A stretch of 32,000 nucleotides of DNA from Desulfosudis oleivorans Hxd3 (GCF_000018405.1 NC_009943.1:240417-272416), one strand, 5' to 3'; counted from the stretch's first letter, positions 14,969 through 32,000 are shown. Numbers and translations are program-made. The notes: generated by a model not told the origin, from the letters alone.

Positions 14969-14980
14969 TAAATAGACTGA

Positions 14981-15056: not shown

Positions 15057-15066
15057 AATCATCCGA

Positions 15067-15094
15067 GGCAGCAGGAATCTCTGCTGCCTTTTTT
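15067..15094 (+). terminator. Rho-independent terminator after tRNA-Asn
   Basis: GGCAGCAG-gaatct-CTGCTGCC followed by TTTTTT. Confidence 0.8.
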
Positions 15095-15106
15095 ATTTGA
15101 TACCAT

Positions 15107-15295: not shown

Positions 15296-15468
15296 ATCCG
15301 CCCCTTGGTATCACCTGTTTAAAGGTGACCGCATTAATGATCATCATTTGACGTTGGCAGAAAAAAAGCTACAAAAAAGCAAATAAAATTTAAGCAATAA
15401 CAGGATGAAAACTTTTTATTGCACGGTAACAATTATAATGTTATCGTACAAAAAAAGGTTATTGCGCC

Positions 15469-17210: not shown

Positions 17211-17825
17211 GGAAAGGCGAACCCATGCCGGCAAAAGATAAACAAACGATCTGTGACGCCCTGGTAAAAGCGATTCGCGGGGCCCCGGTTATAATCCGGA
17301 GTTCCAGACAGCGGCGGTCTGTCTCTTCCTGATTGAAAATTTCGCGCCCTTCAGGTTCAGTCCGGTATCCGAAGGGTTCTTTGAAAACGAAGGGTCAGCC
17401 TTGCCTCGGGATGTACTTCCGGAAAAGAAAAAATCAATCGGTCGTCTTTTAATTCCCGGATCAACTGCGCGAACAGTTGCGGCCGCTTGCGGATAATCTC
17501 CTGTATGTCTTTAGAAATTTTCCCAACATAAGGTGTCAAGAAAAACAATCGGTAGTATTTATCTGGCCCATTAATGTAAATAAAACTATTTACATTGACA
17601 TTTACATTATGGCGGGGGTACTGTTGTCTCCAGATTGACAGGTTTACCAATGATGATGAACTCGTAAAAAGTCTATTTGGAATGGCAAAGTAAAAAGTTC
17701 AAGATCAAGGCGTCGCAAATCCCGAGGAATGAGGCGTACTTGTCGTACGCCGCAGTGACGAGGGGTGCAGCGCAACGCAGATATTGGGCTTTTTACGAAG
17801 CCATCAATGATCGCATGGAGGCAGC

Positions 17826-18458
17826 ATGAGAGACTCCCTTACAGCCCGGCAGCAGCAGGTACTGGAATATTTTCAGCATGAGATCGCTGAGACCGGTGCA
17901 TCGCCAAGCCTGCGGCAGGCGGCGGATGCGCTGTCCGTCAGCCACACCGCCATATCCCAGGCACTGAAATTGCTGGAGAAAAAAGGCTACATTACCCGTC
18001 ATGGGAGATACAGTCGCGATATCCATGTGCTTAACCCCATGAACCAGTCAGCCGGCATGCACCGCTGGCGGGAAATTCCCGTTATCGGCGCCATTACTGC
18101 CGGGTTGCCCATGTATGCCCAGCAGGAATGGGAGGGCACCCTGGTTCTGGACCGGAGCTGCTTTCCCGGGGACAACCTTTTTGCCCTGAGGGTAAAAGGG
18201 GATTCCATGAAGGACGCTGCTATTTTAGACGGGGACCTGGTTATCTGCGAACCCCGCCAATTTGCGGAAAACGGTGAGATCGTGGTGGCCCTGGTGAACG
18301 GCGAGGAAGCCACGGTAAAACGGTTTTTCAAACGCCAGGACCATATTGAGCTGAAGCCCGAAAACCCTGCCTATGCCCCCCTTAAGCTGATGTTTGGTGA
18401 TGTGCTGATTCAGGGAAAGGTCATTGGCCTGCACAGGGATCAGCAAGGGCTTGTCTGA
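17826..18458 (+). CDS. lexA: LexA-family SOS repressor (S24 peptidase)
   Basis: N-terminal wHTH (LRQAADALSVSHTAISQALKLLEKKGYI). Ala-Gly cleavage site in VIGAITAGLP, catalytic Ser in KGDSM and Lys in EATVKRF. Confidence 0.9.
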   Translation: MRDSLTARQQQVLEYFQHEIAETGASPSLRQAADALSVSHTAISQALKLLEKKGYITRHGRYSRDIHVLNPMNQSAGMHRWREIPVIGAITAGLPMYAQQEWEGTLVLDRSCFPGDNLFALRVKGDSMKDAAILDGDLVICEPRQFAENGEIVVALVNGEEATVKRFFKRQDHIELKPENPAYAPLKLMFGDVLIQGKVIGLHRDQQGLV

Positions 18459-18488
18459 CATCCTTATTTTTAAACGGTAACACTCCAT

Positions 18489-19304
18489 ATGGTTGCATCT
18501 GGCGCACAGATTCTGGTCGGCACCTGCGGGTATTCCTATCCGGAGTGGAAAGACGCCGGCTTTTATGCCGAAGACACACCCTCCGGGAAAATGCTGGAAG
18601 CCTATGCCCGGCGGTTTTCCGTAACTGAGCTGAATTATACCTGGTATCAGATGCCCAAGGCCCCGGCGGTGGAGCGCATGTGCCGGAATGTACCGGAGAC
18701 CTTCCGGTTTGCCGCCAAGCTGAACCGCAAGCTGACCCATGAAGTGGAGCCCAACCAGTGGCGGCAGGAAGCCGCACAATACCGGGCGGGCATATCGCCC
18801 CTGGTGCAGTCCAACCAGTTGGCCGCCGTGCTGGTCCAGTTTCCCCCCTCGTTTCAGCGCACGCCGGCCAACAGATCATACCTGGCCGCCCTGCTGGATG
18901 AAATGGGCGACCTTCCCCTGGCCGTGGAGTTCCGGCATGTCTCCTGGGCAACAGACAAGGTATATGCCGCGTTTACCGAAAAAAAAGTCACCCTGGTGGC
19001 GGTGGATGTGCCGGACCTGGCCTGGCTCTATCCCTCGGTGGATGTGGTGACCAACCCGGACCTGTTTTATGTCCGGTTTCACGGCAGAAACGCCAAAGGG
19101 TGGAACGCCGGCAGCATGCAGCAGCAGTTTGACTATGATTATACCGCCGCAGAACTGTCCCCCTGGGCCGACCAGCGCATTCCGCGGATGGCCGCGCAGG
19201 CAGGGGCCGGCCTGGTGTTTTTCAATAACCATGTCCGGGCCCAGGCGCCGAACAACGCGCTCCAGCTTATTCAGATGCTGATACGGCAGGGCCTGTTTCA
19301 ATGA
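18489..19304 (+). CDS. DUF72 (YecE/UPF0759) family protein
   Basis: Family hallmarks are VGTCGYSYPEWKDAGFY, LVQFPPSF, AVEFRHVSW, YVRFHGRN, YDYDYTAAEL and VFFNNH. It starts 30 nt after lexA, and its stop overlaps the imuB-like start (ATGA). Confidence 0.85.
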   Translation: MVASGAQILVGTCGYSYPEWKDAGFYAEDTPSGKMLEAYARRFSVTELNYTWYQMPKAPAVERMCRNVPETFRFAAKLNRKLTHEVEPNQWRQEAAQYRAGISPLVQSNQLAAVLVQFPPSFQRTPANRSYLAALLDEMGDLPLAVEFRHVSWATDKVYAAFTEKKVTLVAVDVPDLAWLYPSVDVVTNPDLFYVRFHGRNAKGWNAGSMQQQFDYDYTAAELSPWADQRIPRMAAQAGAGLVFFNNHVRAQAPNNALQLIQMLIRQGLFQ

Positions 19305-20506
19305 TCCACCGTTTTTTGGAACGATCCATCATCCATATCAATGTGGCCCATTTTGCCGTGACCGTGGAGCAGACACTGGACGCCCGCCTTCGGGATCGGC
19401 CGGTGTTAATCGCGCCGGCCGGGGCCGCGCGAACACCCGTGTACGACATGAGCCAGGAGGCCTTTGCGTCCGGCATCCGCAAGGGCATGCCGGTGGCCGG
19501 CGCCCTGAAGGCCTGCCGGGACTGCAAGGTGGTGCCGCTTTACCCGGCCCGCTATGAACGGGCCATGCAGACCATCGCAAAATACGCCGGGGCGTATACC
19601 CCGGTGGTTGAACAGGGCAGCGGGGATGGCCACCTGTTTCTGGATGTGACCGGGACCAGCCGGCTGTTCGGGCCGCCGCCGGACATCGCCTGGCGCCTGG
19701 AACGGCAGATCAAAAAAGACTTCGGCCTGGCGCCGGCCTGGTCCGTGGCCGCCAATAAGCTGGTGGCCAAGGTGGCCACCCGCCTGGTAAAACCGGTGGG
19801 CGAATATATTGTCTGCCCCGGTGACGAGGCGCCCTTTCTGGAGCCCCTGCCCCTGGGTATTCTGCCCGGGGTGGAGCGGTCCGACCTGGACGCGTTTGCC
19901 ATGTATCACATTGGCCGGGTGAACCAGCTGCGGCCGTGGAGCCTTGCGCAGTTGCAGGTGGCCTTTGATACGCGGGCGCAGTTCCTGTTTGACACCATTC
20001 GGGGCATTGATCTTTCTGCGGTCACGTCCGGCCGCGAAAAGGAACCAACCGTTGCCATGGAACATGAGTTTTCCGAAGACACCAACCAGCGGGACCAGAT
20101 GGAACAGGTGCTCTACGGGCTTGTGGAAAAGGGAGGCCGCGCCCTTCGTGCCCGGCAGCGCTTTGCCCGGATCGCCGGTGTGGTGGTGGACTATTCGGAC
20201 GGCAGGCGGTGCGCGCGGCAGGTGTCCATAGCGCCGCCTACGGCCAATGACCCGGCGCTGTTTGAGGCGGCCCGCAGGGCGTTGTCCCTGGCGGTGGTCC
20301 GCCGGGTCCGGGTGAGGTATATCCGGCTGGTGCTGCGCAGGCTGCTCTTTCCCCCGGTCCAGCTGGACCTTTTTGACCATGACCGGCAGGAACGCCAGAC
20401 ACGCCTTCTGACCGCCATGGATAACATCCGGTCAAAGTTTGGGGACAGCGCCATCTACCCCGGCCGCATGGAGGCGCCTGGCCTGCAACAACTGTTTTAC
20501 GCGTGA
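19301..20506 (+). CDS. imuB: ImuB-like inactive Y-family DNA polymerase
   Basis: It is colinear with DinB-type polymerases (IIHINVAHFAVTVEQ, LFLDVTG, VAANKLVAKVA, LPGV). The catalytic Asp pair seen in dinB of this window (HVDMDAFF) is replaced by HINVAHF. It lies directly upstream of dnaE2 and overlaps it. Confidence 0.8.
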   Translation: MIHRFLERSIIHINVAHFAVTVEQTLDARLRDRPVLIAPAGAARTPVYDMSQEAFASGIRKGMPVAGALKACRDCKVVPLYPARYERAMQTIAKYAGAYTPVVEQGSGDGHLFLDVTGTSRLFGPPPDIAWRLERQIKKDFGLAPAWSVAANKLVAKVATRLVKPVGEYIVCPGDEAPFLEPLPLGILPGVERSDLDAFAMYHIGRVNQLRPWSLAQLQVAFDTRAQFLFDTIRGIDLSAVTSGREKEPTVAMEHEFSEDTNQRDQMEQVLYGLVEKGGRALRARQRFARIAGVVVDYSDGRRCARQVSIAPPTANDPALFEAARRALSLAVVRRVRVRYIRLVLRRLLFPPVQLDLFDHDRQERQTRLLTAMDNIRSKFGDSAIYPGRMEAPGLQQLFYA

Positions 20507-23500
20507 AACAAATGATCCCCCTGACAGTCAGATCCGGTTATTCGCTGATGTGGGGCACAGCCCCCATCAAGGAGGTGTGCCGCGTGGCCCGGCAGCAGGG
20601 ATATGATCGCCTGGCCCTGACCGACACGGACAACCTTTACGGGCTGTGGCATTTTCTGGACGCCTGCCGCCGGAACGATATCACGCCGGTTGTCGGGGCG
20701 GAACTTACCGACCCCGCCACAACAGACCGGGCCGTTCTTCTGGTAAAAAACCCGGAAGGCTACAAAAACCTGTGCCGGCTCATAACCGCCCGGCACCTTG
20801 AACCGGACTTTAAACTGGAAACAGCCATTGCCCGGCATGCTGATGGCCTGGCCGTGCTGACCCGCAATCCCTGCCATTTGAAGCAGTGGCATGAATCCGG
20901 TGTGGCGGTGTATGGCGCCATGCCCCGGCGGCCGATGTCGCTGTCCAGCCCGCTGTGTCAGACCGCCAGGTACTTAAATGTTCCCCTGGTGGCCACGCCC
21001 GGCAGCTTTTTTCTTTCTCCGCAAGACATGGATGCCCACCGGATGCTGCGCGCCATTGACCTGAACACCACGGTTGACAGGCTTGGCCCGTTAGAAGCGG
21101 CGCCCGGGGAAGCCTGGCTGGCATCCCCCCGGGAGTATGAGAAACGTTTTGAAGCCTGCCCGGAAGCTCTGGCCAACACCCGTCGCCTTTCGGAAACCCT
21201 GACGTTTACCGGCCCCGAATTCGGCCTGGTCATGCCCCCCTGGGAAAGCAAAACGGGCACGGACCCTGGCTCCGCCCTTCGGCAGGCCGCCTACCGGGGC
21301 GCTCAGGCGCGGTATGGCCGGGACCTTCCGGAGCCTGTCGCACGGCGCTTGGAGCACGAACTGAGTATCATTATTCAAATGCGCTTTGCCGCTTACTTTC
21401 TGGTGGTGCAAGACATTGTGCGGCTGAGCCCCAGGATTTGCGGCCGGGGATCGGGCGCGGCCTCCCTGGTGGCCTATTGCCTGCGTATCACCAATGTCTG
21501 CCCGATAAAGCACAACCTGTATTTCGAGCGCTTTTTAAACCCGGGCCGAAAGGACGCCCCGGATATTGACGTGGATTTTGCCTGGGATGAACGCGACACC
21601 GTCCTGGCAGCGGTGTTCGAGCGGTTTGGCGATCATTGTGCCATGGTCTGCAACCACGTGCGAATGCAGCCGAGAATGGCGGTCCGGGAGGTGGCCCGGG
21701 TATATGGCCTGACCGAAGCGGAAATCAGCCGGGTGACCAAAAAAATGCCGTGGTTCTGGCGGCAGGACACCGCCGGCCTGGACATCCTGCGGGAACTGTC
21801 AGAGCGCCCGGAATCCCGGGATCTGGACCTGCCCGCGCCCTGGCCCGGGATCATGGCCGTTGCCCGGAAAATCTGCGGCGCGCCCCGGTATCTTTCCGTC
21901 CATCCCGGCGGCGTGATCATCACCCCCCGGCCTGTCTGCGAATATGTTCCGGTGGAAAGGGCCGCCAAGGGTGTCCGGATTATCCAGTGGGAAAAAGACC
22001 AGGCCGAGGATGCCGGGCTGGTGAAAATCGACCTGCTGGGCAACCGGAGCCTGGCCGTGATCCGGGACGCCATTTACAACCTGCGGTCAAACAACCACTT
22101 GCTCGACGAATCCACGTGGGCGCCGGAGGACGACTTTGCCACCCAGGAGGCGGTGTCCCAGGGCAAAACCATGGGCTGTTTTTACATAGAGAGCCCGGCC
22201 ACCCGGCTGTTGCAGAAAAAGTCCCGGGTGGGGGACTTTGAACACCTGGTGATCCACAGCAGCATTATCCGGCCGGCAGCCAATGATTATATCCAGGAAT
22301 ACCTCCGCCGCCTGCACGGCGCGTCCTGGGACCCCATTCACCCGCTTCTGGCGGATGTGCTGGACGAGACCTTTGGCATCATGGTGTACCAGGAAGACGT
22401 GTCCCGGGCCGCTGTGTCCGTGGCCGGGTTTTCTCACGCCGATGCCGACGGCCTGCGCAAGGTCATGTCCAAAAAAGACAAGGACCATGTTCTGGCCGAT
22501 TTTTACCGGCGCTTTGCGGACGGGGCCGCCAAAAACGGGGTGACCCCGGAGAAGATTCGCGAGATATGGCGGATGATGATGAGCTTTTCCGGGTATTCCT
22601 TCTGCAAGCCCCACAGCGCCTCCTATGCACGGGTGTCGTTTCAGGCGGCCTGGCTCAAGACCCACTATCCTGCCGCGTTCATGGCCGCCGTAATCAGCAA
22701 CCAGGGCGGGTTTTACAGCACCTTTGCCTATGTCTCCGAGGCCCGTCGCTCCGGCATTACCATCCTGGCCCCGGACGTCAATGCAAGCGACATCCGATGG
22801 CAGGGCAACGGCAACACCATCCGGGTGGGGCTTTCTGCTGTCGGTCATCTGTCCCTTAAAACCATGGAAAAAACGCTTGCCCACCGCAAGGCCGCACGTT
22901 TTACCGGCCTGGAAGACTACATGGACCGGGTCCGGCCGGATGAGCCTGAAGCTCAGGCCCTTATTCAGAGCGGCGCCTTTGACGCGTTGTGCCCGGGCCG
23001 GTCCAGAAGCATGATCCGGTGGCAATGGGCCTGCTGGAAAAACAACCGCCCGCCAGCATCGTCCTCGCCCCTTTTGTTTGACACGGCTCCCGGGCCGGTG
23101 GTCCCGCCCCCGCAGATAACCGAAGACCCGCTGGAAAGATACCGGCAGGAGTTTTCTGTTTTGGGCTTTTTGTGTGACACCCACCCCATGACGCTGTATA
23201 AGACGGAACTGGAGGGCCGGCAGACCATCAAGGCCAAACACCTGGGCCGATACGCGGGCAAACGCGTCTGCGTGGCCGGCTGGTTGATCACCGGCAAGGT
23301 CGTGCGCACGAAAAACGGCGATCCCATGGAGTTTTTGACCTTTGAAGATGAAACCGACATCTTTGAAGCCACCTTTTTCCCAAAGACGTATACCCGGTTC
23401 TGCCACATGATCGACAGGGGAAGCCCCTTCCTCCTCTGGGGCACGGTGGAGACCAATTGGGGGGCTGTGACACTCACGGTGGAAAAAATAGAAGGCCTGC

Positions 23501-23523
23501 CGGACTACAATAACCGACTATGA
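20503..23523 (+). CDS. dnaE2: Error-prone DNA polymerase III alpha paralogue DnaE2
   Basis: 1006 aa with an N-terminal PHP domain (LTVRSGYSLMWGT, LALTDTDNLYG). Polymerase core motifs include DIDVDF, GGVII, KIDLLG, GCFYIES and FCKPHSASYA. A C-terminal OB fold is present. The GTG start overlaps the imuB stop (GTGA); an alternative ATG is at 20512. Confidence 0.9.
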   Translation: MKQMIPLTVRSGYSLMWGTAPIKEVCRVARQQGYDRLALTDTDNLYGLWHFLDACRRNDITPVVGAELTDPATTDRAVLLVKNPEGYKNLCRLITARHLEPDFKLETAIARHADGLAVLTRNPCHLKQWHESGVAVYGAMPRRPMSLSSPLCQTARYLNVPLVATPGSFFLSPQDMDAHRMLRAIDLNTTVDRLGPLEAAPGEAWLASPREYEKRFEACPEALANTRRLSETLTFTGPEFGLVMPPWESKTGTDPGSALRQAAYRGAQARYGRDLPEPVARRLEHELSIIIQMRFAAYFLVVQDIVRLSPRICGRGSGAASLVAYCLRITNVCPIKHNLYFERFLNPGRKDAPDIDVDFAWDERDTVLAAVFERFGDHCAMVCNHVRMQPRMAVREVARVYGLTEAEISRVTKKMPWFWRQDTAGLDILRELSERPESRDLDLPAPWPGIMAVARKICGAPRYLSVHPGGVIITPRPVCEYVPVERAAKGVRIIQWEKDQAEDAGLVKIDLLGNRSLAVIRDAIYNLRSNNHLLDESTWAPEDDFATQEAVSQGKTMGCFYIESPATRLLQKKSRVGDFEHLVIHSSIIRPAANDYIQEYLRRLHGASWDPIHPLLADVLDETFGIMVYQEDVSRAAVSVAGFSHADADGLRKVMSKKDKDHVLADFYRRFADGAAKNGVTPEKIREIWRMMMSFSGYSFCKPHSASYARVSFQAAWLKTHYPAAFMAAVISNQGGFYSTFAYVSEARRSGITILAPDVNASDIRWQGNGNTIRVGLSAVGHLSLKTMEKTLAHRKAARFTGLEDYMDRVRPDEPEAQALIQSGAFDALCPGRSRSMIRWQWACWKNNRPPASSSPLLFDTAPGPVVPPPQITEDPLERYRQEFSVLGFLCDTHPMTLYKTELEGRQTIKAKHLGRYAGKRVCVAGWLITGKVVRTKNGDPMEFLTFEDETDIFEATFFPKTYTRFCHMIDRGSPFLLWGTVETNWGAVTLTVEKIEGLPDYNNRL

Positions 23524-23541
23524 TGAATAAACAATTTTGTA

Positions 23542-23570
23542 TTGACAGAAGCATGCCCGGTCATGATAAT
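23542..23570 (+). promoter_or_regulatory. Near-consensus sigma70-type promoter for the PLD-nuclease gene
   Basis: TTGACA (23542-23547), a 17-nt spacer, then GATAAT (23565-23570), about 64 nt upstream of the ATG at 23634. It sits at the abrupt GC-to-AT compositional switch after dnaE2. Confidence 0.5.
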
Positions 23571-23633
23571 GGGCCGAGGTTGGGGAAAATACAGCAGCCG
23601 TATAATCAATGTTAAGCGCCATAAAGGACGATC

Positions 23634-24911
23634 ATGAGCATACAAATACTGAATAAAGATCATGGGCAGTCGGCTGGAAAGCTCATCAAGGAATTTGCGC
23701 AGACCCTTGATAGAAAAAAACAAAGAAGACATGAGCTTTGGATACTCTCATGTTATATCGATTTGGATTTAATAGAAAAATACGTTGATTATCTTCTGAA
23801 GAGTATCCGGCTGACAGAAGTCTTTTTAGCATTCAATTTCGCAGAAATCTATAAAGCAGCCCCCATTGAAACAGAAGACAAACTTAATTCCATTAAAAAA
23901 AATCTAAACGATATAAATATCAATTTTGAATGGAGGGTATTGGCCTCTTCCAAATTAGTTCACAGCAAAGGATATTCCCTAATTCAAAGATCAGGTGATA
24001 AAGTATCCGGAGGGGTCGTTCTCATAACCTCTGCGAACTTTACGAAGCCAGGATTCAAAGGCGATAATATTGAGATAGGATATGCTTCAAATAGAAAAAC
24101 GGATGTTCAAAATTTTGAAAAAACATACGATTATCTCTGGGAAAATTTGGGTGTAGATATAGGAGCAGCGATTTTCAGACAAGAAAAATATCTACTGCAG
24201 TTTGCATTGTTATCTTCTGGTTTATTTCTTCATAAATGGTCTGGAAGCTTGAGTCAGGACGTTGGTATAAAATACAAACTGACAGAACTCGCAAAAGAAA
24301 AAGGAACAATAGCTCCTGAATTGGCCGCAGTTGGATTTGAAACGGGTGATACCTTTACGAGGCAAGTTTTGCAGCTTGGCGACCTACCACAAAAGGAAGT
24401 GCCACGATCATTTATAACACGATTCACCATTGAAACTTACTGGGGGAGATGGTGCCCATCTGATGCTTGGAATACTCTCAGCGCAACATTTGAAGGAGCA
24501 AAACAATTTGTTGCACAATTCAAAGAAGCCACTAAAAAGTCTATTCTTTCAAAAATAAAAAAAGAAGCGCTTGAAATACAAAATGATCTGATTCATAAAA
24601 AGTTGATTAAGCCTGTGAAACCAGAACATTTGGATAATTGGATCCTTCGAATTCAAGAATTGCGCAATAACTATCGTCGTCTTGAACGATTTTTTACTGG
24701 ATATGAAGCACATGATCTTCCGTATTCTATTGAACAAAAGTCTGATGTTATCGACCTATTTGAAAGTATAGAAGAATCTATCGAGCTTACAAAAGCCACT
24801 AATATTGCAAAAGAAAAAATTGTGTTTGCACTAGATGATGCAAATCCTGATCTTATCAGGCTGACAGATGAAGAAAAGCAAATAATAAAAGATATGAGCA
24901 GCAGCGCTTAA
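23634..24911 (+). CDS. PLD-superfamily (single HxK motif) nuclease-like protein with a large uncharacterised C-terminal region
   Basis: SKLVHSKGYSLIQ ... GGVVLITSANFT matches the H-x-K-x4-D ... G-S-x-N motif of Nuc/BfiI-type PLD nucleases (His codon 23961-23963). About 230 C-terminal residues have no recognised motif. The gene is visibly AT-rich relative to its flanks. Confidence 0.65.
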   Translation: MSIQILNKDHGQSAGKLIKEFAQTLDRKKQRRHELWILSCYIDLDLIEKYVDYLLKSIRLTEVFLAFNFAEIYKAAPIETEDKLNSIKKNLNDININFEWRVLASSKLVHSKGYSLIQRSGDKVSGGVVLITSANFTKPGFKGDNIEIGYASNRKTDVQNFEKTYDYLWENLGVDIGAAIFRQEKYLLQFALLSSGLFLHKWSGSLSQDVGIKYKLTELAKEKGTIAPELAAVGFETGDTFTRQVLQLGDLPQKEVPRSFITRFTIETYWGRWCPSDAWNTLSATFEGAKQFVAQFKEATKKSILSKIKKEALEIQNDLIHKKLIKPVKPEHLDNWILRIQELRNNYRRLERFFTGYEAHDLPYSIEQKSDVIDLFESIEESIELTKATNIAKEKIVFALDDANPDLIRLTDEEKQIIKDMSSSA

Positions 24912-24914
24912 CAA

Positions 24915-24982
24915 CCGCATCAACTCGGACTGGGAAAAGCAGCCCCGCTTCGCTATGCTGCTTTTCCCAGCCGGTTATGCGG
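24915..24982. other. Nested inverted repeat / long stem-loop
   Basis: A perfect 14-bp stem, CTGGGAAAAGCAGC (24930-24943) pairing with GCTGCTTTTCCCAG (24957-24970), with a 13-nt loop. It is enclosed by CCGCAT (24915-24920) and ATGCGG (24977-24982). There is no adjacent T-tract, so it is not a canonical intrinsic terminator. Confidence 0.6.
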
Positions 24983-25011
24983 AGCGTTAGGTTTTAAATG
25001 TAAAAGTTAAT

Positions 25012-25036
25012 ATCTGCCCGGACACTTCCGGCAGAT
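25012..25036 (-). terminator. Possible terminator hairpin downstream of the WYL regulator gene
   Basis: ATCTGCCCGG-acactt-CCGGCAGAT (one bulged C). It is followed on the minus strand by an A/T-rich run with TTTT. Confidence 0.35.
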
Positions 25037-25128
25037 GGTAAAGCGCCCCCCGGCCAGTATTTTTATGCCCTGCAATCCAATGTTATTCCTTGCAAGCACC
25101 AACAATTCCGGAGTCGGTAGATCCCACA

Positions 25129-26121
25129 TTATTGATAACGCTTTCGAATATTCTCTGCTGCGACCTTTACCTCCTCCACCAACCAGTCCGGTGAAAGCAC
25201 CTTTACCTCGGCTCCGAAGGACATCACCCACGACACCACCTCCGGTTCGGACGAGGCGGTAAAGGTCAGCACAATCCCATCCCTTTTCTGCTCTATCTTC
25301 TGGTCCGGGCTCAGGCGCCGCTCTTCTGCAAAGGCCGCCGCATACCCGGTCAGCGACACCTCCACCTGGAAGGTCTCCTGCTTGATCACGCCAAAGGCCT
25401 GGTTGAAATGCTTTTCGAAATTGTAGGTTTTCGGAAAAACAAACTTCCGGTCCGTGGGTTCCACCGCCTTCAGCCGGTGCACGGCCAGCAGCGGGTCGAA
25501 CTCAAACTCGGTTTTCTTTGAGCCGGGATACCGGGCCATGCCCGCGTGCAGGTAAAGGGCGTTGTTGTGGGCAAACAGCTTGTAAGGCTTGATGTAAAAG
25601 GTCTTGCCTCTGCTTTCCATGGGGTTCTTATAGGTGATTTTGCACACCGTCTTTTCTTCCATGGCCTTCATCAGCACGCGAATGTCCTGCTGCCGGGGCG
25701 TGTAGTCGATGGTGCCGGGCAGAAAGGCGTCAAACAGGTCCGCGCCCGTGGCGCCGGCGGCCAGGGTGCTGCTTTTCTGAATGGCCCTTTCCGATTCCAT
25801 CAGCAGGTCTTTTCCCAGCAGGTGCCGCGTAAAGGCCAGGCACATCTGAAGCATGACCATTTCCGACGGCGACATGCTCAACGCGCCGGGCAGCTTCTCC
25901 GGCCGCTGAATATGGTAATAGCTTTTCCGGCCATCCTTGGTCTCCTCTATCGGCACATAAGCCCGGCTGATATGGTCCACCATTCGAATCACGGTCTGCT
26001 TGGAGCAATCCATCTCTTTGGCCAGGTCCACCAGGGACCGGCGCCTTCCCGTAAAATAGAGCTCGGCAAACAGCCAGATCAGGTTTTCTCCATAGGTTTT
26101 GTCCGATTTTTTTCTGGGCAT
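25129..26121 (-). CDS. WYL-domain transcriptional regulator (HTH-WYL-C-terminal extension; CapW/BrxR-like architecture)
   Basis: N-terminal HTH RSLVDLAKEMDCSKQTVIRMVDHI. The central WYL-type SH3-like domain is KITYKNPMESRGKTFYIKPYKLFAHNNALYLHA. The C-terminal segment is GAEVKVLSPDWLVEEV. It is divergent from the AAA+ gene. Confidence 0.8.
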   Translation of the reverse strand: MPRKKSDKTYGENLIWLFAELYFTGRRRSLVDLAKEMDCSKQTVIRMVDHISRAYVPIEETKDGRKSYYHIQRPEKLPGALSMSPSEMVMLQMCLAFTRHLLGKDLLMESERAIQKSSTLAAGATGADLFDAFLPGTIDYTPRQQDIRVLMKAMEEKTVCKITYKNPMESRGKTFYIKPYKLFAHNNALYLHAGMARYPGSKKTEFEFDPLLAVHRLKAVEPTDRKFVFPKTYNFEKHFNQAFGVIKQETFQVEVSLTGYAAAFAEERRLSPDQKIEQKRDGIVLTFTASSEPEVVSWVMSFGAEVKVLSPDWLVEEVKVAAENIRKRYQ

Positions 26122-26144
26122 GTCCCCTCCTTATGAAAAACCAT

Positions 26145-26169
26145 TATCATTCCGTTTTATGGAACGATA
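26145..26169. promoter_or_regulatory. Imperfect inverted repeat, candidate operator in the WYL/AAA+ divergent region
   Basis: TATCATTCC-gttttat-GGAACGATA (8 of 9 positions complementary). It is centred in the 130-bp divergent intergenic region. Confidence 0.3.
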
Positions 26170-26251
26170 GCCTGTTACGGTGGGCCTGTCAAGCGAAACG
26201 ACCCCACTTTGAAAGTAGATTTTTTGAAGAACACACTCAGGAGGAAAGACC

Positions 26252-28513
26252 ATGGCAATACCAAAACAGTTTCGACGCAAGCGGAGTATGAATATGGGGA
26301 TGAACCAAGCCTTTTTTTTCTCTCGCCCCCAGGTAGAGGACAAAAACGGACGTTTTGTTGTCAGAAAATGCTGTGACTATATGCTGCGGCTGATGGGAAA
26401 ACGATTCTCTTTAGATGCAGAGACCGTGGAGTTCATTTGCTGGCTGGTCGGTGAACAGCGAAGGGAAATCAGGAAATTCATCCTGACCCGGCTTCCGGAG
26501 GATGAGCAGGAATATTTTGATGAATTCCTCTCCCCGGATACTCATGATGACGGGATGTTTGGTATAACCATTGTGCAAACGCTGCAAATCTCAAAAGACC
26601 GAAGCATCGCCGCCGACTGCTTTCAATTTTTCAGCCAGATTTTGCAGCGCCGGCGAAAAGCACTGGCCGGCAACGGTAATTCCGGCCTGCAAAAAAGCTT
26701 TGATCAACTCCAGTCCATCTTCCGCCTCACAGACCTGGAGACGGAGCTGTGCCTTTTTCTCTTTATAATCAGCGCTTACGATACGCCGGAGAAATTTTTC
26801 GACGACCATCTGCACACAGACAGGTTTCAGGGGCGTGGTTTTCTCTGCACCGCGCTGAACGCATCCAAACATGAAATTAACCAGGCGATTGGCAAGACGC
26901 TGACGGCTGCCGGGCTGGTGGAAATTTCCGGAGGCTTTAAAAGCACCATCCGCTTGACAGATGAAGTACAAAACATCCTTTTTGATCCTGCCTGCGACAT
27001 ACTTCAGAAAACCAATTTAAAAGACGCTAAAAAACAACCGGCGCTTCCCCTGTCTTACCATTTTGTGCCGGAAGCCGATATCAGCCATATTCTTTCTCTG
27101 CTCTGCGGAAAAACCGATACCGCCACTCACATCCTCCTGTATGGCCCGCCAGGTACCGGCAAAACAAGCTTTGCGTATGGCCTTTCCCGCAAGCTGAATG
27201 ATCCGGTATATGAAATCACGCATGACAACTCCCAGGAGAATGACAGCAAAAGCCGACGCCTCTCCCTGACGGTCTCAATCAACAGCATGAACCGGGGCCA
27301 GGGCGCGATTTTTATCGTTGATGAGGCAGATAATCTGCTGAACACGGAACGCCACTGGATGATAAGCGGTGAAGTGCAGGACAAGGGCTGGCTCAATAAG
27401 CTGATGGACAAGCCGGGGCTGCGGATCATCTGGATTGTCAACGCCATCCATTCCATAGAACCGTCTGTAGCGCGCCGCTTTGCCTACAGCCGCCATTTTG
27501 AGCCGTTTACCTGCAAACAGCGGGAACAGCTCTGGGATAATGTGATCCGGAAAAATCGCTGCAAGCGTTTTTTTACCACCGAAGACCTGCGGCAACTGGC
27601 CCGGGAGTTTGATGCCAGCGCCGGTGTCATTGACATGGCCGTAAAAAAAGCAAAAGAAGCCGGCCATGCCGGCCGGGCTCCAATGCTTCAGGCGGTCCGG
27701 CAGGGGATTGAAGCCCACCAGGCCCTGGTCAATGGCGGCCATAAAAAACCCCCCAAAGAAGCAATCGATCACCGGTATTCTCTGGATGGGTTAAACATAT
27801 CCGCCGACATTCGGCAGGTAATGTTCCAGGCGGAACAATTCAGCCGGCACCTTAAAAATACCACCAATATGACCCACTATAATTTCAACCTGCTCCTTCA
27901 TGGACCACCGGGCTCGGGCAAAAGCGAATTTGCCCGCTACCTTGCGCAACACCTGGACCGGGAACTTCATGTTCGCCGCTCCAGCGACATCTTGAGCCCA
28001 TATGTAGGTGTGGCCGAAAAAAATATCCGCCAGTCATTTGACCAGGCCGCTCACCAGGGCGCTATCCTTTTAATTGACGAAGCCGACGCCCTGCTGTTTC
28101 CCCGGGCAAATGCCAGCCGCTCCTGGGAAATCAGCCACACGGCCGAACTGCTCACCGCCATGGAGCGGTTTCGCGGCCTGCTTATCTGCACCACCAACCG
28201 GCTGAACGGAATAGATTCTGCCGCCATCCGGCGATTTAACCATAAAATCAGATTCGACTTTCTCACGCCGGACGGCAGCTGGATCTTTTACAACAAAATG
28301 CTGACACCCCTGGCAAAACTCGCGCCGGATGACCGGAACATCAAGACCGTCAAAAACCTGCGCCGCCTGACCCCCGGTGATTTTAAGATCGTCCGGGACC
28401 GCTTTGCCTTTTATCCGAAAGAAGAGATCACCCATACCATGCTGGTTGACGCCCTGGGGCAGGAAGCCACCGTCAAACAGCAGCAAACAGGAGAAAAGCC
28501 GATTGGCTTTTAA
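26252..28513 (+). CDS. Tandem AAA+ ATPase with an uncharacterised N-terminal region of about 290 aa
   Basis: AGGAGG RBS lies 7 nt upstream. Module 1 has Walker A LLYGPPGTGKT (nt about 27143-27166), Walker B IFIVDEAD and VARRF. Module 2 has Walker A LLHGPPGSGKS (nt about 27902-27925), Walker B ILLIDEAD and the SRH-like TTNRLNGIDSAAIRRF. Confidence 0.85.
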   Translation: MAIPKQFRRKRSMNMGMNQAFFFSRPQVEDKNGRFVVRKCCDYMLRLMGKRFSLDAETVEFICWLVGEQRREIRKFILTRLPEDEQEYFDEFLSPDTHDDGMFGITIVQTLQISKDRSIAADCFQFFSQILQRRRKALAGNGNSGLQKSFDQLQSIFRLTDLETELCLFLFIISAYDTPEKFFDDHLHTDRFQGRGFLCTALNASKHEINQAIGKTLTAAGLVEISGGFKSTIRLTDEVQNILFDPACDILQKTNLKDAKKQPALPLSYHFVPEADISHILSLLCGKTDTATHILLYGPPGTGKTSFAYGLSRKLNDPVYEITHDNSQENDSKSRRLSLTVSINSMNRGQGAIFIVDEADNLLNTERHWMISGEVQDKGWLNKLMDKPGLRIIWIVNAIHSIEPSVARRFAYSRHFEPFTCKQREQLWDNVIRKNRCKRFFTTEDLRQLAREFDASAGVIDMAVKKAKEAGHAGRAPMLQAVRQGIEAHQALVNGGHKKPPKEAIDHRYSLDGLNISADIRQVMFQAEQFSRHLKNTTNMTHYNFNLLLHGPPGSGKSEFARYLAQHLDRELHVRRSSDILSPYVGVAEKNIRQSFDQAAHQGAILLIDEADALLFPRANASRSWEISHTAELLTAMERFRGLLICTTNRLNGIDSAAIRRFNHKIRFDFLTPDGSWIFYNKMLTPLAKLAPDDRNIKTVKNLRRLTPGDFKIVRDRFAFYPKEEITHTMLVDALGQEATVKQQQTGEKPIGF

Positions 28514-28528
28514 TAACAACAAAAAAAA

Positions 28529-28658
28529 CGTCATTGCCAGAAACAACTCCACGTGGCAATCTTCCCGCAGTGAACGTCAATACGAGGAGCGATAGCGACG
28601 AAGCAATCTCCACCGCATTCCCCGTCAATGCGAGGAGCAACGCGACGAAGCAATCTTG
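28529..28658. repeat. Three imperfect direct repeats (period about 47 bp) in the ATPase-nuclease spacer
   Basis: R1 (28575-28611) is CGTCAATACGAGGAGCGATAGCGACGAAGCAATCTCC. R2 (28623-28658) is CGTCAATGCGAGGAGCAACGCGACGAAGCAATCTTG, nearly identical. R0 (28529-28565), CGTCATTGCCAGAAACAACTCCACGTGGCAATCTTCC, is a degenerate third copy sharing CGTCA(A/T)TGC ... GCAATCT. Confidence 0.7.
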
Positions 28659-28678
28659 TTCTTTAAAAGGAAAAAAAC

Positions 28679-30169
28679 ATGCACAATCACACCCCCCGCA
28701 TCTCCAAATCCCAGTACCTTCGTGGCCTGCAGTGCCCCAAGTCCCTTTGGTATTACCGCCACCGCCCGGACCTGGCCCCGGAAACCCCACCCGGCCGCCA
28801 GGCCCTGTTTGACGCCGGCCACGAGGTGGGCGTGCTGGCCCAACAGTATTTTAAAACCGGTATCGAGATCACCGAAGACTACCTGGCAACCGACAAGGCC
28901 ATCTGCTCCACGCAAAAAGCGGTTGCCGATGGCCACATTCATATCTTTGAAGCCACGGCCGCAGCCCCGGATGGCGCGTTCTCCAAAATCGATATCCTGA
29001 AAAAGGTCGGCAAATCCGACGCCTGGGACCTGGTCGAGGTCAAGATGTCCACCGGCGTCAAGGATTACCACGTAGACGACATGGCCCTTCAGCGCCATGC
29101 CTTTACCGGCGCGGGCTACAACATTCGAAAATCGATCCTCATGCACATCAACAACCAATATGTCCGGTCCGGAGACCTGGACCTTTTGGCCCTGTTTACC
29201 CTGGCCGACTGTACAGAGCAAGTCACCTCCCGGCTGGCCGACGTTGACGGCCATGTGGCCCGGCTCCTGGACGTCATCCGGCAACAAAAAGAGCCGGACG
29301 TGGCCCCGGGCGACCACTGCTTTTCCCCCTTTGAATGCGACTATACCGGCCACTGCTGGCCCACCCATCCACCCCGGTCGGTTTACGACCTTTTCCCCAC
29401 TGGCCCGAAGCTTAACGCCCTTCTGGCCCGGGACATCACCCTGATCAGCGAAATCCCCGACGATTTTCGCATGACAAACCGCCAGCAGGTGCTGGTCCAA
29501 GCCTGCAAAACCGGCCAGGTGCAGCTCGACCCGGCCAAAATCCAGAAGTTTCTTTTGTCTTTAAAATACCCGCTCTATTTTCTTGATTATGAAACCATAA
29601 ACAATGCCGTGCCCCTGTTTGACCGCACCCGGCCCTATCAGCAGGTGCCGTTTCAGTTTTCCCTTCATGTTCAAAACGAAAAAAACGGCCCGGTCAACCA
29701 CGTGGAGTTTCTTTCCACCGAAAAAACAGACCCCCGGCCGGCCTTTATTGAAAAACTGATCGCCCACTGCGGCACCAAAGGCTCGGTCATCGTTTACAAC
29801 AAGGCTTTTGAAAAGCGGATCAACGACGAACTGGGCCGGGACTTTCCCCAGTTCAAACCGGCCTTAAACCGCATCTCCACCCGCATGGTCGACCTGCTGG
29901 TGCCCTTCCGCTCCCGCCACCTCTACCACCCGGACATGAACGGCTCAGCCTCATTAAAAAGCGTGCTCCCCGCCTTTGTGCCCCACATGCGCTACGACAC
30001 CCTTGAGATCAGCGACGGCGGCGCCGCAGCCCAGCTCTACTTAAGCTGCCTCAAAGACGCTCTTCCCGCCGAAGAACAGCAGAAAGTTTTTGATAACTTG
30101 CGCGTCTACTGCGGGCAGGACACCCTTGCCGAGGTAAAGCTGCTGGAGGTAATGTACGGGCTGGTGTAA
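28679..30169 (+). CDS. Cas4/RecB-like PD-(D/E)XK nuclease fused to a DUF2779 domain
   Basis: The N-terminus SKSQYLRGLQCPKSLWY is typical of DUF2779 proteins. Nuclease core is FEAT...IDILKK...WDLVEVK. Four Cys (GLQC plus HCFSPFECDYTGHC) resemble a Cas4/AddB-type Fe-S cluster. C-terminal DUF2779 hallmarks are YFLDYET, RPYQQVPFQFSLH, VYNKAFE and SASLKSVLPA. Confidence 0.75.
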   Translation: MHNHTPRISKSQYLRGLQCPKSLWYYRHRPDLAPETPPGRQALFDAGHEVGVLAQQYFKTGIEITEDYLATDKAICSTQKAVADGHIHIFEATAAAPDGAFSKIDILKKVGKSDAWDLVEVKMSTGVKDYHVDDMALQRHAFTGAGYNIRKSILMHINNQYVRSGDLDLLALFTLADCTEQVTSRLADVDGHVARLLDVIRQQKEPDVAPGDHCFSPFECDYTGHCWPTHPPRSVYDLFPTGPKLNALLARDITLISEIPDDFRMTNRQQVLVQACKTGQVQLDPAKIQKFLLSLKYPLYFLDYETINNAVPLFDRTRPYQQVPFQFSLHVQNEKNGPVNHVEFLSTEKTDPRPAFIEKLIAHCGTKGSVIVYNKAFEKRINDELGRDFPQFKPALNRISTRMVDLLVPFRSRHLYHPDMNGSASLKSVLPAFVPHMRYDTLEISDGGAAAQLYLSCLKDALPAEEQQKVFDNLRVYCGQDTLAEVKLLEVMYGLV

Positions 30170-30173
30170 TCTT

Positions 30174-30189
30174 CCGGCTTGCCGGTTTT
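30174..30189 (+). terminator. Weak intrinsic terminator after the DUF2779 gene
   Basis: CCGGC-tt-GCCGG followed by TTTT, 5 nt after the stop codon. The stem is short, so confidence is low. Confidence 0.35.
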
Positions 30190-30436
30190 CCTTGGCCCAT
30201 GCAGCCAGAATGCAAACCGGACTATTTGGAAAATCGTATTTCAATGATCCACTTACGCGCCATAATCGGGTCAAAATATGACCCAAAACCGGGCAGATGC
30301 GCCTGGAACGGTTGCGTCTCCTTGCGCGACCTGGCCCAACTGGTCAATATGGGCATTCTTCAAAAAATCCCGGCGGCGGCCGCAGCACCAGCTAAGACCT
30401 GGTCTGGCCTGGGGGCCCGGGAAAAATTTAGCAACA

Positions 30437-31645
30437 TTAATCATCCAAAAGCATTTCAACTTTTTTACAAGCAATTTTAAATTTCTGGTTTTTGTTCATT
30501 TTGTAATGTTTGAGATATCTTTCTGCCGCAACCTTTATGCTTTTATAGAACCAATCAAAAGCCTTGATCTCATCTCCAGCGTCCCATCCCTTGTTTTGTT
30601 TATATTTTAAGGGATGCGGGCTTTCCAAATATGAAGCTCCATCTGGATCTGGATTCAGCTGCACATAATTTTTAAATACAACATCTCTACGGCTTATTCC
30701 TTTTTCCACCGTGGCCACATAGCCGAACTCCAAACCGACATACTTAATATTGTCATTAAGCTGCAATGAACAAAAAAACCAATAATAGCCGTATATTTCA
30801 TTACTATATTTTTTGACTCTAACTTCATGATCTTCGTCTTTTGTAGCCACTTTAAGTAATTTTTCCAGTGTTTCTTTGGTTACAAACGGCTCAAACACAT
30901 TCAACACTGAAACGACCATCCTTTTCTTGTATCGCACCTCTATCTTTTCTCTAACACTATTACCTAGAAACTCCAGATTGCTATTTATTATCTCAAGCGC
31001 ATATGGTATGCCTCTTGTTATTTTCTCTGTAGTAGCCCTGTTCTGTTGACTTGTTCGGAGAAAAAGACTCTGCAAAAAAAGACCGACCTCTTGCGGCAAA
31101 ATTTGATTGTATATCATGCAACTCTCCTCCAGATATTTTATAAACTCCTGCTGAAACAGTCCTTTGCTTTTGAGGCGACGCAAATTTTTATATAAATCAT
31201 TTATGGTCACTATATCGTATTGCCTGCTCATTTTTGTTTTCAGGGTTTTACAAATCCAATCTTCGGCTGGATATTTTGTGATCAATATAAAGCCAGCATT
31301 CATTGCTAAAGCATACTTAATATAATCATCGAGCTGATCCTCTGATAGCTCGTCTTCCATTTTCACCTCAAATATCAAAAGTGGGTGTTGACTTTCGTCG
31401 AAAACAGTAACATCAGATCTTCTTCTTTCTTTATTATCATTCCAGAGAACCGGAAAGGGAACCTCTAGAATGGTTTTAATCTCTTTTTTGCTATGCGACG
31501 TGTAACATTTAAAAAGGTTCAAAATGTCCTTGTTTTCATCTATTAGTGACTTCAGACAAATAGCCAGGAATCGACCTTCGGGATCTATCCTTTTTTTTTC
31601 AACTATATAGTTTCTAAAAGAGCCGAGTAAGCTACGTTCCCTCAT
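30437..31645 (-). CDS. Hypothetical protein with an N-terminal PD-(D/E)XK nuclease-like motif (402 aa)
   Basis: RRSDVTVFDESQHPLLIFEVKMEDELSEDQLDDYIKY fits D ... (D/E)-x-K followed by Q-x-x-x-Y (EVK codons at about 31361-31369, minus strand). The gene is strongly AT-rich relative to neighbours. The remaining 280 aa or so have no recognised motif. Confidence 0.5.
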   Translation of the reverse strand: MRERSLLGSFRNYIVEKKRIDPEGRFLAICLKSLIDENKDILNLFKCYTSHSKKEIKTILEVPFPVLWNDNKERRRSDVTVFDESQHPLLIFEVKMEDELSEDQLDDYIKYALAMNAGFILITKYPAEDWICKTLKTKMSRQYDIVTINDLYKNLRRLKSKGLFQQEFIKYLEESCMIYNQILPQEVGLFLQSLFLRTSQQNRATTEKITRGIPYALEIINSNLEFLGNSVREKIEVRYKKRMVVSVLNVFEPFVTKETLEKLLKVATKDEDHEVRVKKYSNEIYGYYWFFCSLQLNDNIKYVGLEFGYVATVEKGISRRDVVFKNYVQLNPDPDGASYLESPHPLKYKQNKGWDAGDEIKAFDWFYKSIKVAAERYLKHYKMNKNQKFKIACKKVEMLLDD

Positions 31646-31741
31646 TATAAAATCCTCTATTAGCCGGTAGTGGTTTTGTTTTTCTTATGCGTCTTGTTCT
31701 TTGGGCCTTAAACATAAGGCGCTCGGCACCATCGCTAAGGA

Positions 31742-32000
31742 TTATAATTTTTTTCTGCCGCCGCTCTTATTGGCAATTTCAATCTGGTTTAGTTTTTTTT
31801 CCGCCTCAACGAAGTGTTTTTCCGCCTCGGTCGGTTCCGCTAACTGTCTGACCCTGAACTTTTCGTATTCCTCGTGGGCTTTGCGCAACGCCTCTTCATG
31901 GCTGATTTTTCCGGCGTGGGAAAGCAGATCACGACCGGTCATGGTTAAAAACTGGTGCAGGCGCTCTATCCAATCGGCCATGGTCATGGGGTTGCGGTTC
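31742..32000 (-). CDS. RhuM-family-like protein, C-terminal part (gene continues past the window end)
   Basis: The frame stays open upstream of the listed ATG to the window edge. DWIERLHQFLTMTGRDLLSHAGKISHEEALRKAHEEYEKFRVRQ resembles the conserved C-terminus of RhuM/virulence-protein-family DNA-binding proteins. This is recalled from memory and was not searched. Confidence 0.5.
   Translation of the reverse strand, partial: NRNPMTMADWIERLHQFLTMTGRDLLSHAGKISHEEALRKAHEEYEKFRVRQLAEPTEAEKHFVEAEKKLNQIEIANKSGGRKKL

Follow-up and report, generated by a model that had tools for sequence, protein, structure and literature searches.

We analysed a 32,000-nucleotide stretch of the Desulfosudis oleivorans Hxd3 genome (GCF_000018405.1, NC_009943.1:240417-272416; hereafter the window), in which three neighbouring genes form what their sequences suggest is a plausible new defence-type module with no match among named systems. 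On the minus strand, an open reading frame (ORF) at 25129-26121 encodes a 330-amino acid (aa) regulator of the WYL family, with the HTH-WYL-WCX architecture assigned by Pfam. Divergent from it, on the plus strand, lies the gene for a 753-aa tandem AAA+ ATPase of type II, similar to Cdc48/p97 (26252-28513), recognized as an ORF with two PF00004 modules. This is followed, also on the plus strand, by an ORF (28679-30169) whose 496-aa product, identified by PF11074, is a predicted dual nuclease combining a Cas4-like domain with DUF2779. NCBI entries of D. oleivorans (formerly placed in Desulfococcus) match the AAA and DUF2779 proteins at 100% identity. An initial annotation, made from the sequence alone, had described the same three ORFs, and their coordinates, orientation and lengths (330, 753 and 496 aa) were reproduced exactly. 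The motifs that it quoted (GPPGTGKT/IFIVDEAD and GPPGSGKS/ILLIDEAD in the ATPase, IDILKK...LVEVK and four cysteines in the nuclease) are readable in the translations and invariant in family alignments. The alignments comprised 24 full-length homologues of the AAA protein and 20 of the DUF2779 protein, and the WYL profile was built from 18 homologues.

The 753-aa protein has two complete classical AAA modules in Pfam (PF00004, E 6e-37). Because an AGGAGG Shine-Dalgarno sequence (26239-26244) lies 7 nt upstream of its start codon, and because of the alignment of its homologues, we prefer this start to the less likely 739-aa start of the NCBI record. Walker A and Walker B occupy residues 298-305 and 357-358 in the first module (D1) and residues 551-558 and 609-610 in the second (D2). 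Across the 24 homologues, G298-K304, D357/E358 and R408/R409 are invariant in D1, as are G551-S558, D609/E610 and R660/R661 in D2. D2 also has an aromatic pore loop, YVG at 584-586, which follows the pattern [Y/W/F]-V-G throughout the family; D1 has no aromatic pore loop. Two PF00004 modules, Walker A and B motifs and the arginines of the second region of homology place the protein among classical-clade type II AAA+ ATPases. Its AlphaFold2 model (pLDDT 80.7, falling below 50 in the tail) has Rix7, Cdc48, NVL, AFG2 and p97 as top Foldseek matches, with E values of ~1e-17. Judged by this model, the protein is a type II double-ring unfoldase, and the conservation of both Walker A/B sets, of the arginine fingers and of the D2 pore loop, together with the Cdc48/Rix7-like fold, makes it plausible that the unfoldase is active. 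With Cdc48/p97/VAT, Rix7/NVL and AFG2 it shares the stacking of two classical AAA modules that both have Walker A/B and arginine fingers, and the aromatic pore loop in D2. However, its identity to these proteins is only 16-20%, and it scores 65 bits against TIGR01243, whose cut-off is 802.65. Its N-terminal domain is a new helical fold with no match in the PDB, rather than a double-psi-barrel, and it ends in Ile-Gly-Phe (IGF) where Cdc48-type proteins have HbYX.

The N-terminal domain (residues 1-290; 26252-27121 on the plus strand) is modelled as a helical bundle with a winged-helix-like element at residues ~190-245 (pLDDT 80, pTM 0.74). Foldseek found no significant match to it in the PDB, the best (E 0.28) being a weak resemblance to the winged helix-turn-helix of MarR-type proteins. 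When 1.84 billion representatives were searched with phmmer, 169 clusters were returned, and in all of them the domain is N-terminal in proteins of ~720-760 aa or in fragments. At the level of sequence, the domain is the mark of one small family of single architecture. The IGF tripeptide, which ends a disordered tail (28502-28510, plus strand), emerged from the homologue alignment as a candidate docking motif. It is invariant in the 24 full-length homologues and present in 40 of 80 locus ORFs, with PGF and AGF variants besides; in plasmid homologues at 28-30% identity it is kept, plus 0-2 extra residues. Like the IGF loop of ClpX and the HbYX tails of the proteasomal ATPases, it is a short hydrophobic tripeptide on a flexible part of a hexameric unfoldase. 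The known cases dock onto a peptidase ring, and a docking role may be envisaged here. In ClpX, however, the motif sits in an internal loop, whereas in the window family it is at the C-terminus or 1-2 residues from it. There is also no peptidase gene in the window (Pfam and PADLOC detected no peptidase family in the ORFs from 23.6 to 32 kb), and the comparison is purely one of analogy.

To place these proteins in a wider context we used several samples. Two peptide patterns scanned across 185,579 species genomes identified at least 98 stretches of the AAA family that were confirmed by tblastn, a count that is a lower bound. From the side of the ATPase, a scan of one genome per species gave 79 loci for synteny, mainly in Desulfobacterota, with a few in Bacteroidota, Acidobacteriota and Myxococcota. 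From the side of the nuclease, 80 metagenomic and 32 plasmid DUF2779 loci were collected. Finally, a tblastn search of PLSDB gave ~21 plasmid records with relatives spanning both AAA modules. A phage origin of the ATPase was considered and rejected: phrog_10401 matches residues 143-753, yet tblastn against 50,697 phage records produced three weak, unannotated matches.

The regulator scores above the Pfam cut-offs for both WYL (PF13280, 26.7 bits against 21.8) and WCX (PF25583, 59.4 bits), and it matches the PADLOC WYL models (E 4e-26). The HTH_11 match is weak (17.4 bits, cut-off 25), so that the protein falls in the HTH-WYL-WCX class with a weakly defined HTH part. A divergent WYL homologue (37-65% identity) lies upstream of the AAA gene in ~50 of the 79 genome loci, which is almost every locus with sufficient flank, and WYL adjoins AAA in 8-9 of 10 annotated plasmid loci. 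Two groups of WYL proteins invite comparison. With the BrxR/CapW-type repressors of BREX, CBASS and integrative and conjugative element (ICE) hotspots, the window protein shares the HTH-WYL-WCX architecture, a palindromic operator at its own promoter, and a place beside island-borne, potentially toxic genes. For BrxR, single-stranded DNA (ssDNA) is reported to relieve repression after restricted infection (2026 preprint, PMC13622015), and conserved unknown genes beside BrxR-family regulators have been proposed as possible new defence systems (Picton et al., PMC9122601). Nevertheless, the window protein has no detectable sequence match to the solved BrxR or CapW structures: when the PDB sequence set was searched with the WYL profile, their chains were absent at E <=1. 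The family operator is also distinct in its 7-nt spacer and extended -10 partner, and the genes under control here match no named system in PADLOC v2. The closest solved relatives of the profile are instead DriD of Caulobacter (E 1.5e-7) and PafC, the similarity lying in the WCX region. DriD and the actinobacterial PafBC are activators. The palindromic site of ~20 bp recalls DriD, and target promoters without a -35 element, along with genetic linkage to an AAA unfoldase system (Mpa), recall PafBC. Those proteins, however, are chromosomal master regulators of repair regulons, whereas the WYL protein described here travels with one or few accessory genes on islands and plasmids.

Other switches and regulator duplications occur in the family. 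In locus L161 (16399-19885), the second AAA paralogue of the contig is preceded not by WYL but by an HTH_3 (XRE) and Peptidase_M78 (ImmA-like) pair, which is an alternative damage- or infection-responsive switch. In L162 (1364-3779 and 6832-10220), two paralogous WYL genes stand 5 kb apart, one divergent from Fic and the other from AAA, and the surrounding genes include MNT and PIN toxin-antitoxin genes.

Between the divergent WYL and AAA genes lies a 25-bp palindromic operator, TATCATTCCGTTTTATGGAACGATA (26145-26169), an inverted repeat with the core GTTCC-N7-GGAAC that is conserved in homologous regions and that we predict to be the site of a WYL-type dimer. The core is found, at <=2 mismatches, in 40 of 43 homologous WYL-AAA intergenic regions, against a background rate (<=1 mismatch) of 0.03 per kb, and this is the one credible copy in the window. 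A consensus scan places a sigma-70-type promoter for the WYL gene at 26164-26192 on the minus strand, with -35 TTGACA, a 17-nt spacer and -10 TATCGT. It matches the consensus at 10 of 12 positions, its -10 lies, as read from the sequence, inside the right operator arm, and it would presumably drive the WYL gene. On the other side, directly after the operator, a candidate extended -10 of the AAA promoter (TGtTACGGT; 26173-26181, plus strand) is suggested by its position. The pattern is clearer in the family as a whole. Among 32 aligned distinct sites, the WYL Shine-Dalgarno sequence and start codon are 15-30 nt to one side of the operator, and a conserved extended -10, CATGnTATAaT, directed at the AAA gene, follows 8-10 nt past the operator core; the window's version matches this consensus less well. 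No -35 hexamer is present in the AAA-side promoters of these aligned regions, and the operator core covers ~-39 to -23 of the predicted AAA start site, that is, the position of the -35 and spacer. The simplest reading of this layout is repression and autorepression by occlusion; the alternative, by analogy with PafBC, is activation by a regulator standing in for the -35 contact. Control of the module by WYL, as the initial annotation had supposed, is backed at the sequence level by this conserved operator-promoter cassette.

The cassette is not confined to divergent WYL-AAA pairs. It is found upstream of AAA genes lacking a neighbouring WYL, and an operator and extended -10 of its own stand before DUF2779 in L012 (two copies), L045, L060 and L086, where DUF2779 is not directly behind AAA. 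In L141, L149 and L130 it precedes small unidentified genes leading into DUF2779. DUF2779 thus appears to belong to the same regulon as AAA. Recurrent small genes lie between operator and DUF2779 or after AAA in L141 (1347-2746), L148 (7178-8992), L130 (5709-9757) and L016 (4352-6611). They fall into clusters of ~160 aa (c9), ~200 aa (c23) and 225-560 aa (c5), none with a Pfam, PADLOC or PHROG match; those of L148 come after a DnaA/DnaC-like ATPase. The same operator also stands before a ClpP-like protease gene (PF00574, E 5e-33) in L149 (522-3503) and L130 (1-585). In L149 this gene is followed by one for a 756-aa WHD-AAA-PLD protein, beside a unit in which WYL is divergent from c23 and DUF2779. 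We rejected assignment of this ClpP-linked protein to the window AAA family, as only its AAA module aligns. The locus is a peptidase-AAA-nuclease combination inside the same regulon, though with another AAA family.

The third protein carries DUF2779 (PF11074) at residues 300-425, with 160.4 bits against a gathering threshold of 23.3 (E 3e-47). Its N-terminal Cas4-like PD-(D/E)xK domain has the residues D105, E120 and K122 and a cluster of four cysteines in a 1+3 pattern (C19, C214, C220 and C226). C-terminally it has the residues D303, E305, E378, Y477 and D481 of a DEDDy 3'-5' exonuclease. All of these are invariant in the 20 homologues. The PADLOC Cas4 model matches weakly (E 1.2e-4, 20.6 bits, residues 12-229). 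Because the DEDDy positions are invariant, both nuclease heads are probably active. The initial annotation had named no characterised function for DUF2779 proteins. The literature, however, already predicts a fusion of Cas4-like and DEDD 3'-5' exonuclease domains: PF11074 has been assigned to the RNase H-like superfamily, within its 3'-5' exonuclease clade, and found fused to the Cas4-like DUF83 (Majorek et al., 2014; PMC3985635). More recently, the quasi-essential homologue MMSYN1_0389 of JCVI-syn3.0 was described as Cas4-like plus DEDD(y), with a DEDD domain reported to resemble that of the mitomycin-repair exonuclease MrfB (2026; PMC13621843). The window protein agrees with this published architecture. 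Set beside the DUF2779/UU173 family (MMSYN1_0389), Cas4, AddB and MrfB, it has in common a Cas4-like D..E-x-K core with cysteines in a 1+3 pattern of the putative Fe-S type, and DEDDy motifs. Unlike the Mycoplasma protein, it keeps all four cysteines, and unlike Cas4, it has no cas1/cas2 or CRISPR context. No cas family was detected by Pfam or PADLOC among the six ORFs scanned from 23.6 to 32 kb, and among the recurring neighbour gene clusters of 160 related loci none was of cas-like length or annotation. WYL regulation and AAA linkage are not described for DUF2779 in the literature as far as searched.

In the window, 165 bp separate the AAA stop codon from the DUF2779 start. Most of this spacer is occupied by a 47-nt tandem repeat (28556-28657, plus strand; 2.2 copies, 80% matches, Tandem Repeats Finder score 132) that is present nowhere else in the window. 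The RNA fold of the spacer is not unusual (z = -1.2). Because the window has a single operator and the 165-bp gap holds no intrinsic-terminator-like site on the plus strand, AAA and DUF2779 are presumably co-transcribed.

We then asked how closely the two genes are linked elsewhere. DUF2779 is within 10 kb of AAA in 12 of the 79 genome loci. It directly follows AAA in L010, L013/L014, L026 and L052; in L016, L032, L045 and L012 it is one to three genes away. Were it a single-copy gene in a genome of 4 Mb, roughly 0.4 such cases would be expected at this distance, implying an enrichment of ~30-fold. Nevertheless, 67 of the 79 AAA loci (~85%) have no DUF2779 within this range. In the opposite direction, AAA is near DUF2779 in 3 of the 80 metagenomic loci (L086, L099 and L101), leaving ~95% of DUF2779 loci without it; in ~12 of the 80, WYL is directly or nearly adjacent and AAA is absent. 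On plasmids, DUF2779 is near AAA in 4 of the ~21 AAA records, and AAA near DUF2779 in 4 of the 32 DUF2779 loci. The check proposed in the initial annotation, whether the two are conserved neighbours, is thus borne out in part: they are linked beyond chance in both genomes and plasmids, but most loci of either lack the other, and the strict view of an ATPase-nuclease pair as a fixed unit is not supported. These distributions show that the conserved core is WYL plus AAA, and that DUF2779 belongs to the regulon as an optional component, not as a required partner. Two of the loci with DUF2779 directly downstream, L013 and L014, one from a 'Candidatus Woesearchaeota archaeon' bin and one from a Syntrophaceae contig of the same study, have equal identities, aligned ranges, ORF lengths and spacings relative to the window proteins. 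They appear to be near-identical, and the assignment to an archaeon is probably a mistake of binning.

The gene that follows AAA has the same orientation at 49 of 68 loci, and the gap between the two is often below 30 bp. It is hypervariable and mostly without a Pfam, PADLOC or PHROG match. The idea that these genes form a uniform effector class was rejected, as they are hypervariable, many match no family and some are housekeeping genes. Elsewhere, restriction-modification genes neighbour DUF2779 (MmeI-type; a set of SNF2, DUF4391 and methylase; type I HsdR). The AAA gene also occurs beside toxin-antitoxin genes (Fic, MNT and PIN), where another WYL is divergent from Fic, and on a Tra-encoding element, and several assemblies have two copies of the AAA family (e.g., L057/L061, L041/L072 and L161). 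In a Bacteroidetes metagenome-assembled genome (L026, 6305-7648), a PLD-like gene lies directly upstream of the operator-AAA-DUF2779 unit. The window has a PLD-like gene of its own (23634-24911), and the two products share 22% identity over ~280 residues (pairwise E 3e-4) and the Pfam pair PLDc_2 and RE_NgoFVII. By sequence, the PLD-like gene may be a fourth associated gene.

The WYL, AAA and DUF2779 trio recurs on proteobacterial plasmids, at <=35% identity and in other gene orders. A Rhodoferax plasmid carries AAA, DUF2779 and WYL followed by a PDC-M27A gene (E 2e-182), its AAA protein sharing 28% identity with that of the window over residues 198-722 (E 9e-62). The order AAA, DUF2779, WYL is also seen on a Diaphorobacter plasmid. 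On a Sphingobium plasmid, DUF2779 and WYL are divergent from AAA, with a PD-(D/E)XK gene after them, and on an Azospirillum plasmid 1.2 kb lie between AAA and DUF2779. The recurrence of the trio across phyla with rearranged gene order indicates a functional link, although the nuclease is still one option of several. Thus, on the Sphaerotilus plasmid NZ_CP035707.1 (L170, 5722-8735), WYL and AAA are followed by a Sir2 gene that overlaps the AAA stop codon by 4 nt and is translationally coupled to it; the set stands beside BREX-2 PglZ/BrxD. A Leisingera plasmid has AAA, WYL, an ADP-ribosylglycohydrolase and a PD-(D/E)XK gene, and in Desulfosarcina BuS5 and Pantoea, WYL and AAA are found beside a ZacB/ZacC-like trio (an Azaca-like set). 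Partners therefore seem to be swappable, among them Sir2, an ADP-ribosylglycohydrolase with a PD-(D/E)xK protein, other PD-(D/E)xK proteins and unknown ORFs.

No PADLOC v2.0 or NCBIfam 20.0 (2026) model covers the WYL, AAA or DUF2779 protein at family level, in agreement with the initial annotation, which had recognized no named system here. The top PADLOC and NCBIfam match for D2 is IetA of the IetAS system (Gao et al., 2020), in which a classical-clade AAA protein is likewise paired with a degradative partner. We nevertheless rejected membership of IetAS, because D2 alone matches, far under the cut-off (NF042959, residues 543-677, 107.7 bits against 510; PADLOC IetA models, residues 505-698 only), and no IetS subtilisin-like protease is adjacent, the downstream gene being DUF2779. 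Moreover, IetA is a single-module protein of ~370 aa, to which the window AAA adds its N-terminal domain, a full D1 and the IGF tail. Literature searches found no description of a system of WYL and tandem AAA, and nothing relevant on the mechanism of IetA.

Overall, these data lead us to propose that the locus encodes a conflict module, inducible and horizontally mobile, that most probably acts against phages or plasmids, with WYL and a Cdc48-like AAA protein as its core and DUF2779 as an accessory effector; we regard this reading as about evenly balanced between right and wrong. Its activity, signal, substrate and partner are all things that we infer. In outline, the WYL protein would repress the WYL and AAA promoters until released by a nucleic-acid ligand, which, as with BrxR and DriD, could be ssDNA arising from restricted phage infection, plasmid entry or DNA damage. 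AAA and DUF2779 would then be transcribed together. The AAA hexamer would pick a protein substrate through its family-specific N-terminal domain and thread it through the YVG pore loops of D2, with the C-terminal IGF tail docked onto a partner, possibly a ClpP-type peptidase. The nuclease would degrade linear or nicked DNA from both polarities, combining 5' end-dependent cleavage of the Cas4 type with 3'-5' exonuclease activity. In other genomes the same regulator-ATPase core is joined by Sir2, ADP-ribosylglycohydrolase, other PD-(D/E)xK proteins or unknown ORFs. One may go further and suppose that the AAA protein is an immune unfoldase whose tail plugs into host ClpP or a dedicated ClpP-like ring, causing infection-induced degradation. 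Its N-terminal domain would select either a phage or plasmid protein or a protein that inhibits the effector encoded alongside (DUF2779, Sir2 or another), with WYL silencing the system until ssDNA appears. This elaboration we consider decidedly doubtful.

The principal rival to a conflict module is a DNA-damage regulon of the DriD/PafBC type, independent of the SOS response, in which WYL would sense ssDNA and activate by replacing the -35 contact, AAA would clear stalled or cross-linked proteins from DNA, and DUF2779 would trim damaged ends. Much of what weighs against the defence reading favours this one. The nearest solved relatives of the WYL protein are the damage activators DriD and PafC, not BrxR or CapW. 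The target promoters lack a -35 and have the operator in its place, as described for PafBC, a layout that suits activation as well as repression. The reported likeness of the DEDD domain to MrfB also points to repair, as does the quasi-essential DUF2779 homologue of a minimal Mycoplasma (PMC13621843), which argues against the family being intrinsically one of defence effectors. In addition, the window locus abuts a lexA-DUF72-imuB-dnaE2 cassette, and the AAA N-terminal domain has its weak winged-helix-like element. Three further points count against the defence reading on its own terms: docking of IGF onto ClpP is an analogy, co-transcription across the repeat-bearing 165-bp gap is an assumption, and the picture of a variable effector rests on a subset of loci, because many genes after AAA are housekeeping genes (isocitrate dehydrogenase, T2SSE, histidine kinases) or match no family. 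However, the AAA family is rare at the counts given above, both among species genomes and in clusters of the N-terminal domain. It is multi-copy in some genomes, and it is carried on plasmids and conjugative elements beside restriction-modification, BREX, toxin-antitoxin and Sir2 genes. Such a rare, multi-copy and mobile distribution is typical of conflict systems and not of core repair. The extended -10 (TGn), moreover, makes the promoters self-sufficient, so that repression fits better than activation. On balance we think a damage regulon unlikely, though it deserves to be taken seriously.

The remaining alternatives concern the relationship among the genes and the role of their carrier. One makes AAA and DUF2779 an obligate two-component effector, the ATPase loading or activating the nuclease and each being inactive without the other. 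In its favour are their adjacency, shared orientation and close spacing in the window, L010, L013/L014, L052, L099, Rhodoferax and Diaphorobacter, the persistence of the association across phyla at low sequence identity, and the operator type common to both. It is quite unlikely, however, given that DUF2779 is absent within 10 kb of AAA in 67 of 79 loci, that AAA is near so few metagenomic and plasmid DUF2779 loci (3 of 80 and 4 of 32), and that each gene has other company: DUF2779 is also found with only WYL or with different small genes, and AAA with Sir2 and others. The module might instead serve a mobile element, in entry exclusion, in recombination or in maintaining a plasmid or ICE; WYL would then be the element's damage-sensing switch. 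Homologues do occur on plasmids and beside Tra genes, a Tn3 transposase and a DnaC-like loader; the XRE and ImmA-like pair substitutes for WYL in L161; and Cas4-like nucleases are common in mobile elements (PMC13621843). Yet genes for an integrase, replication or transfer are absent from 23.6 to 32 kb of the window, the module is found in many unrelated contexts, and its three matches in phage records are weak and marginal, which leaves this role very unlikely. Finally, island genes shuffle freely, and most DUF2779 and most AAA genes occur apart, as would be expected of three unrelated chance neighbours. This view is already disfavoured by the shared operator-promoter cassette, the ~30-fold enrichment of DUF2779 within 10 kb of AAA and the recurrence of the trio on distant plasmids, and we consider it extremely improbable.

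If the conflict-module reading is correct, it adds a defence family built on a Cdc48-like protein unfoldase, an activity barely explored in bacterial immunity, where IetAS is without a known mechanism. It would also give a first functional context to DUF2779, a widespread uncharacterised nuclease family that includes a quasi-essential gene of JCVI-syn3.0. The operator-promoter cassette offers a handle for mining the regulon for further effectors and a simple reporter of the signal read by WYL sensors, and the IGF tail gives experiments a concrete starting point for finding the partner of the ATPase.

The surroundings of the module are those of a low-GC island that begins at ~23.6 kb with the PLD-like gene. 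Directly to its left, contiguous on the plus strand and at native GC, are lexA (17826-18458; Peptidase_S24 and LexA_DNA_bind), DUF72, an imuB-like Y-family polymerase gene and dnaE2, which extends to 23523; DUF72 takes the position usual for imuA in such mutagenesis cassettes. To the right of the module are a 402-aa ORF and a RhuM fragment, an 81-aa ORF (31742-31987) that is the C-terminal end of RhuM clipped by the window edge. An exact-sequence search with the 739-aa NCBI product gave no record, but contigs with an identical DUF2779 protein (L167, 5420-11595) show what follows past position 32000: the full RhuM comes first, then a YgjP/SprT-like metallopeptidase, then a type I HsdR at least 1005 aa long. 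These genes just beyond the window end bear out the defence-island-like surroundings proposed in the initial annotation. Its two flanking nuclease-like genes stand less firmly, as both have sub-threshold Pfam matches only (PLDc_2, 20.5 bits with a cut-off of 27; HSDR_N_2, 20.1 with a cut-off of 25). Its suggestion of a tRNA-linked island was rejected: tRNA-Asn (14981-15056) is 8.5 kb from the left GC edge of the island, with the native-GC lexA-DUF72-imuB-dnaE2 genes in between, and no tRNA-derived, att-like direct repeat was found in 14900-32000, although the far edge of the island may lie beyond the window. Rfam detected nothing in the window other than tRNA. Right after tRNA-Asn, GC falls to 0.48-0.55 over 15100-17210. 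Pfam matched neither of the two ORFs there, which share an orientation and encode 327 and 253 aa; the stretch may represent another small insertion, separate from the island, at the tRNA. Further to the left, an isolated GC dip to 0.46 at 11001-12000 interrupts a region of 0.56-0.62.

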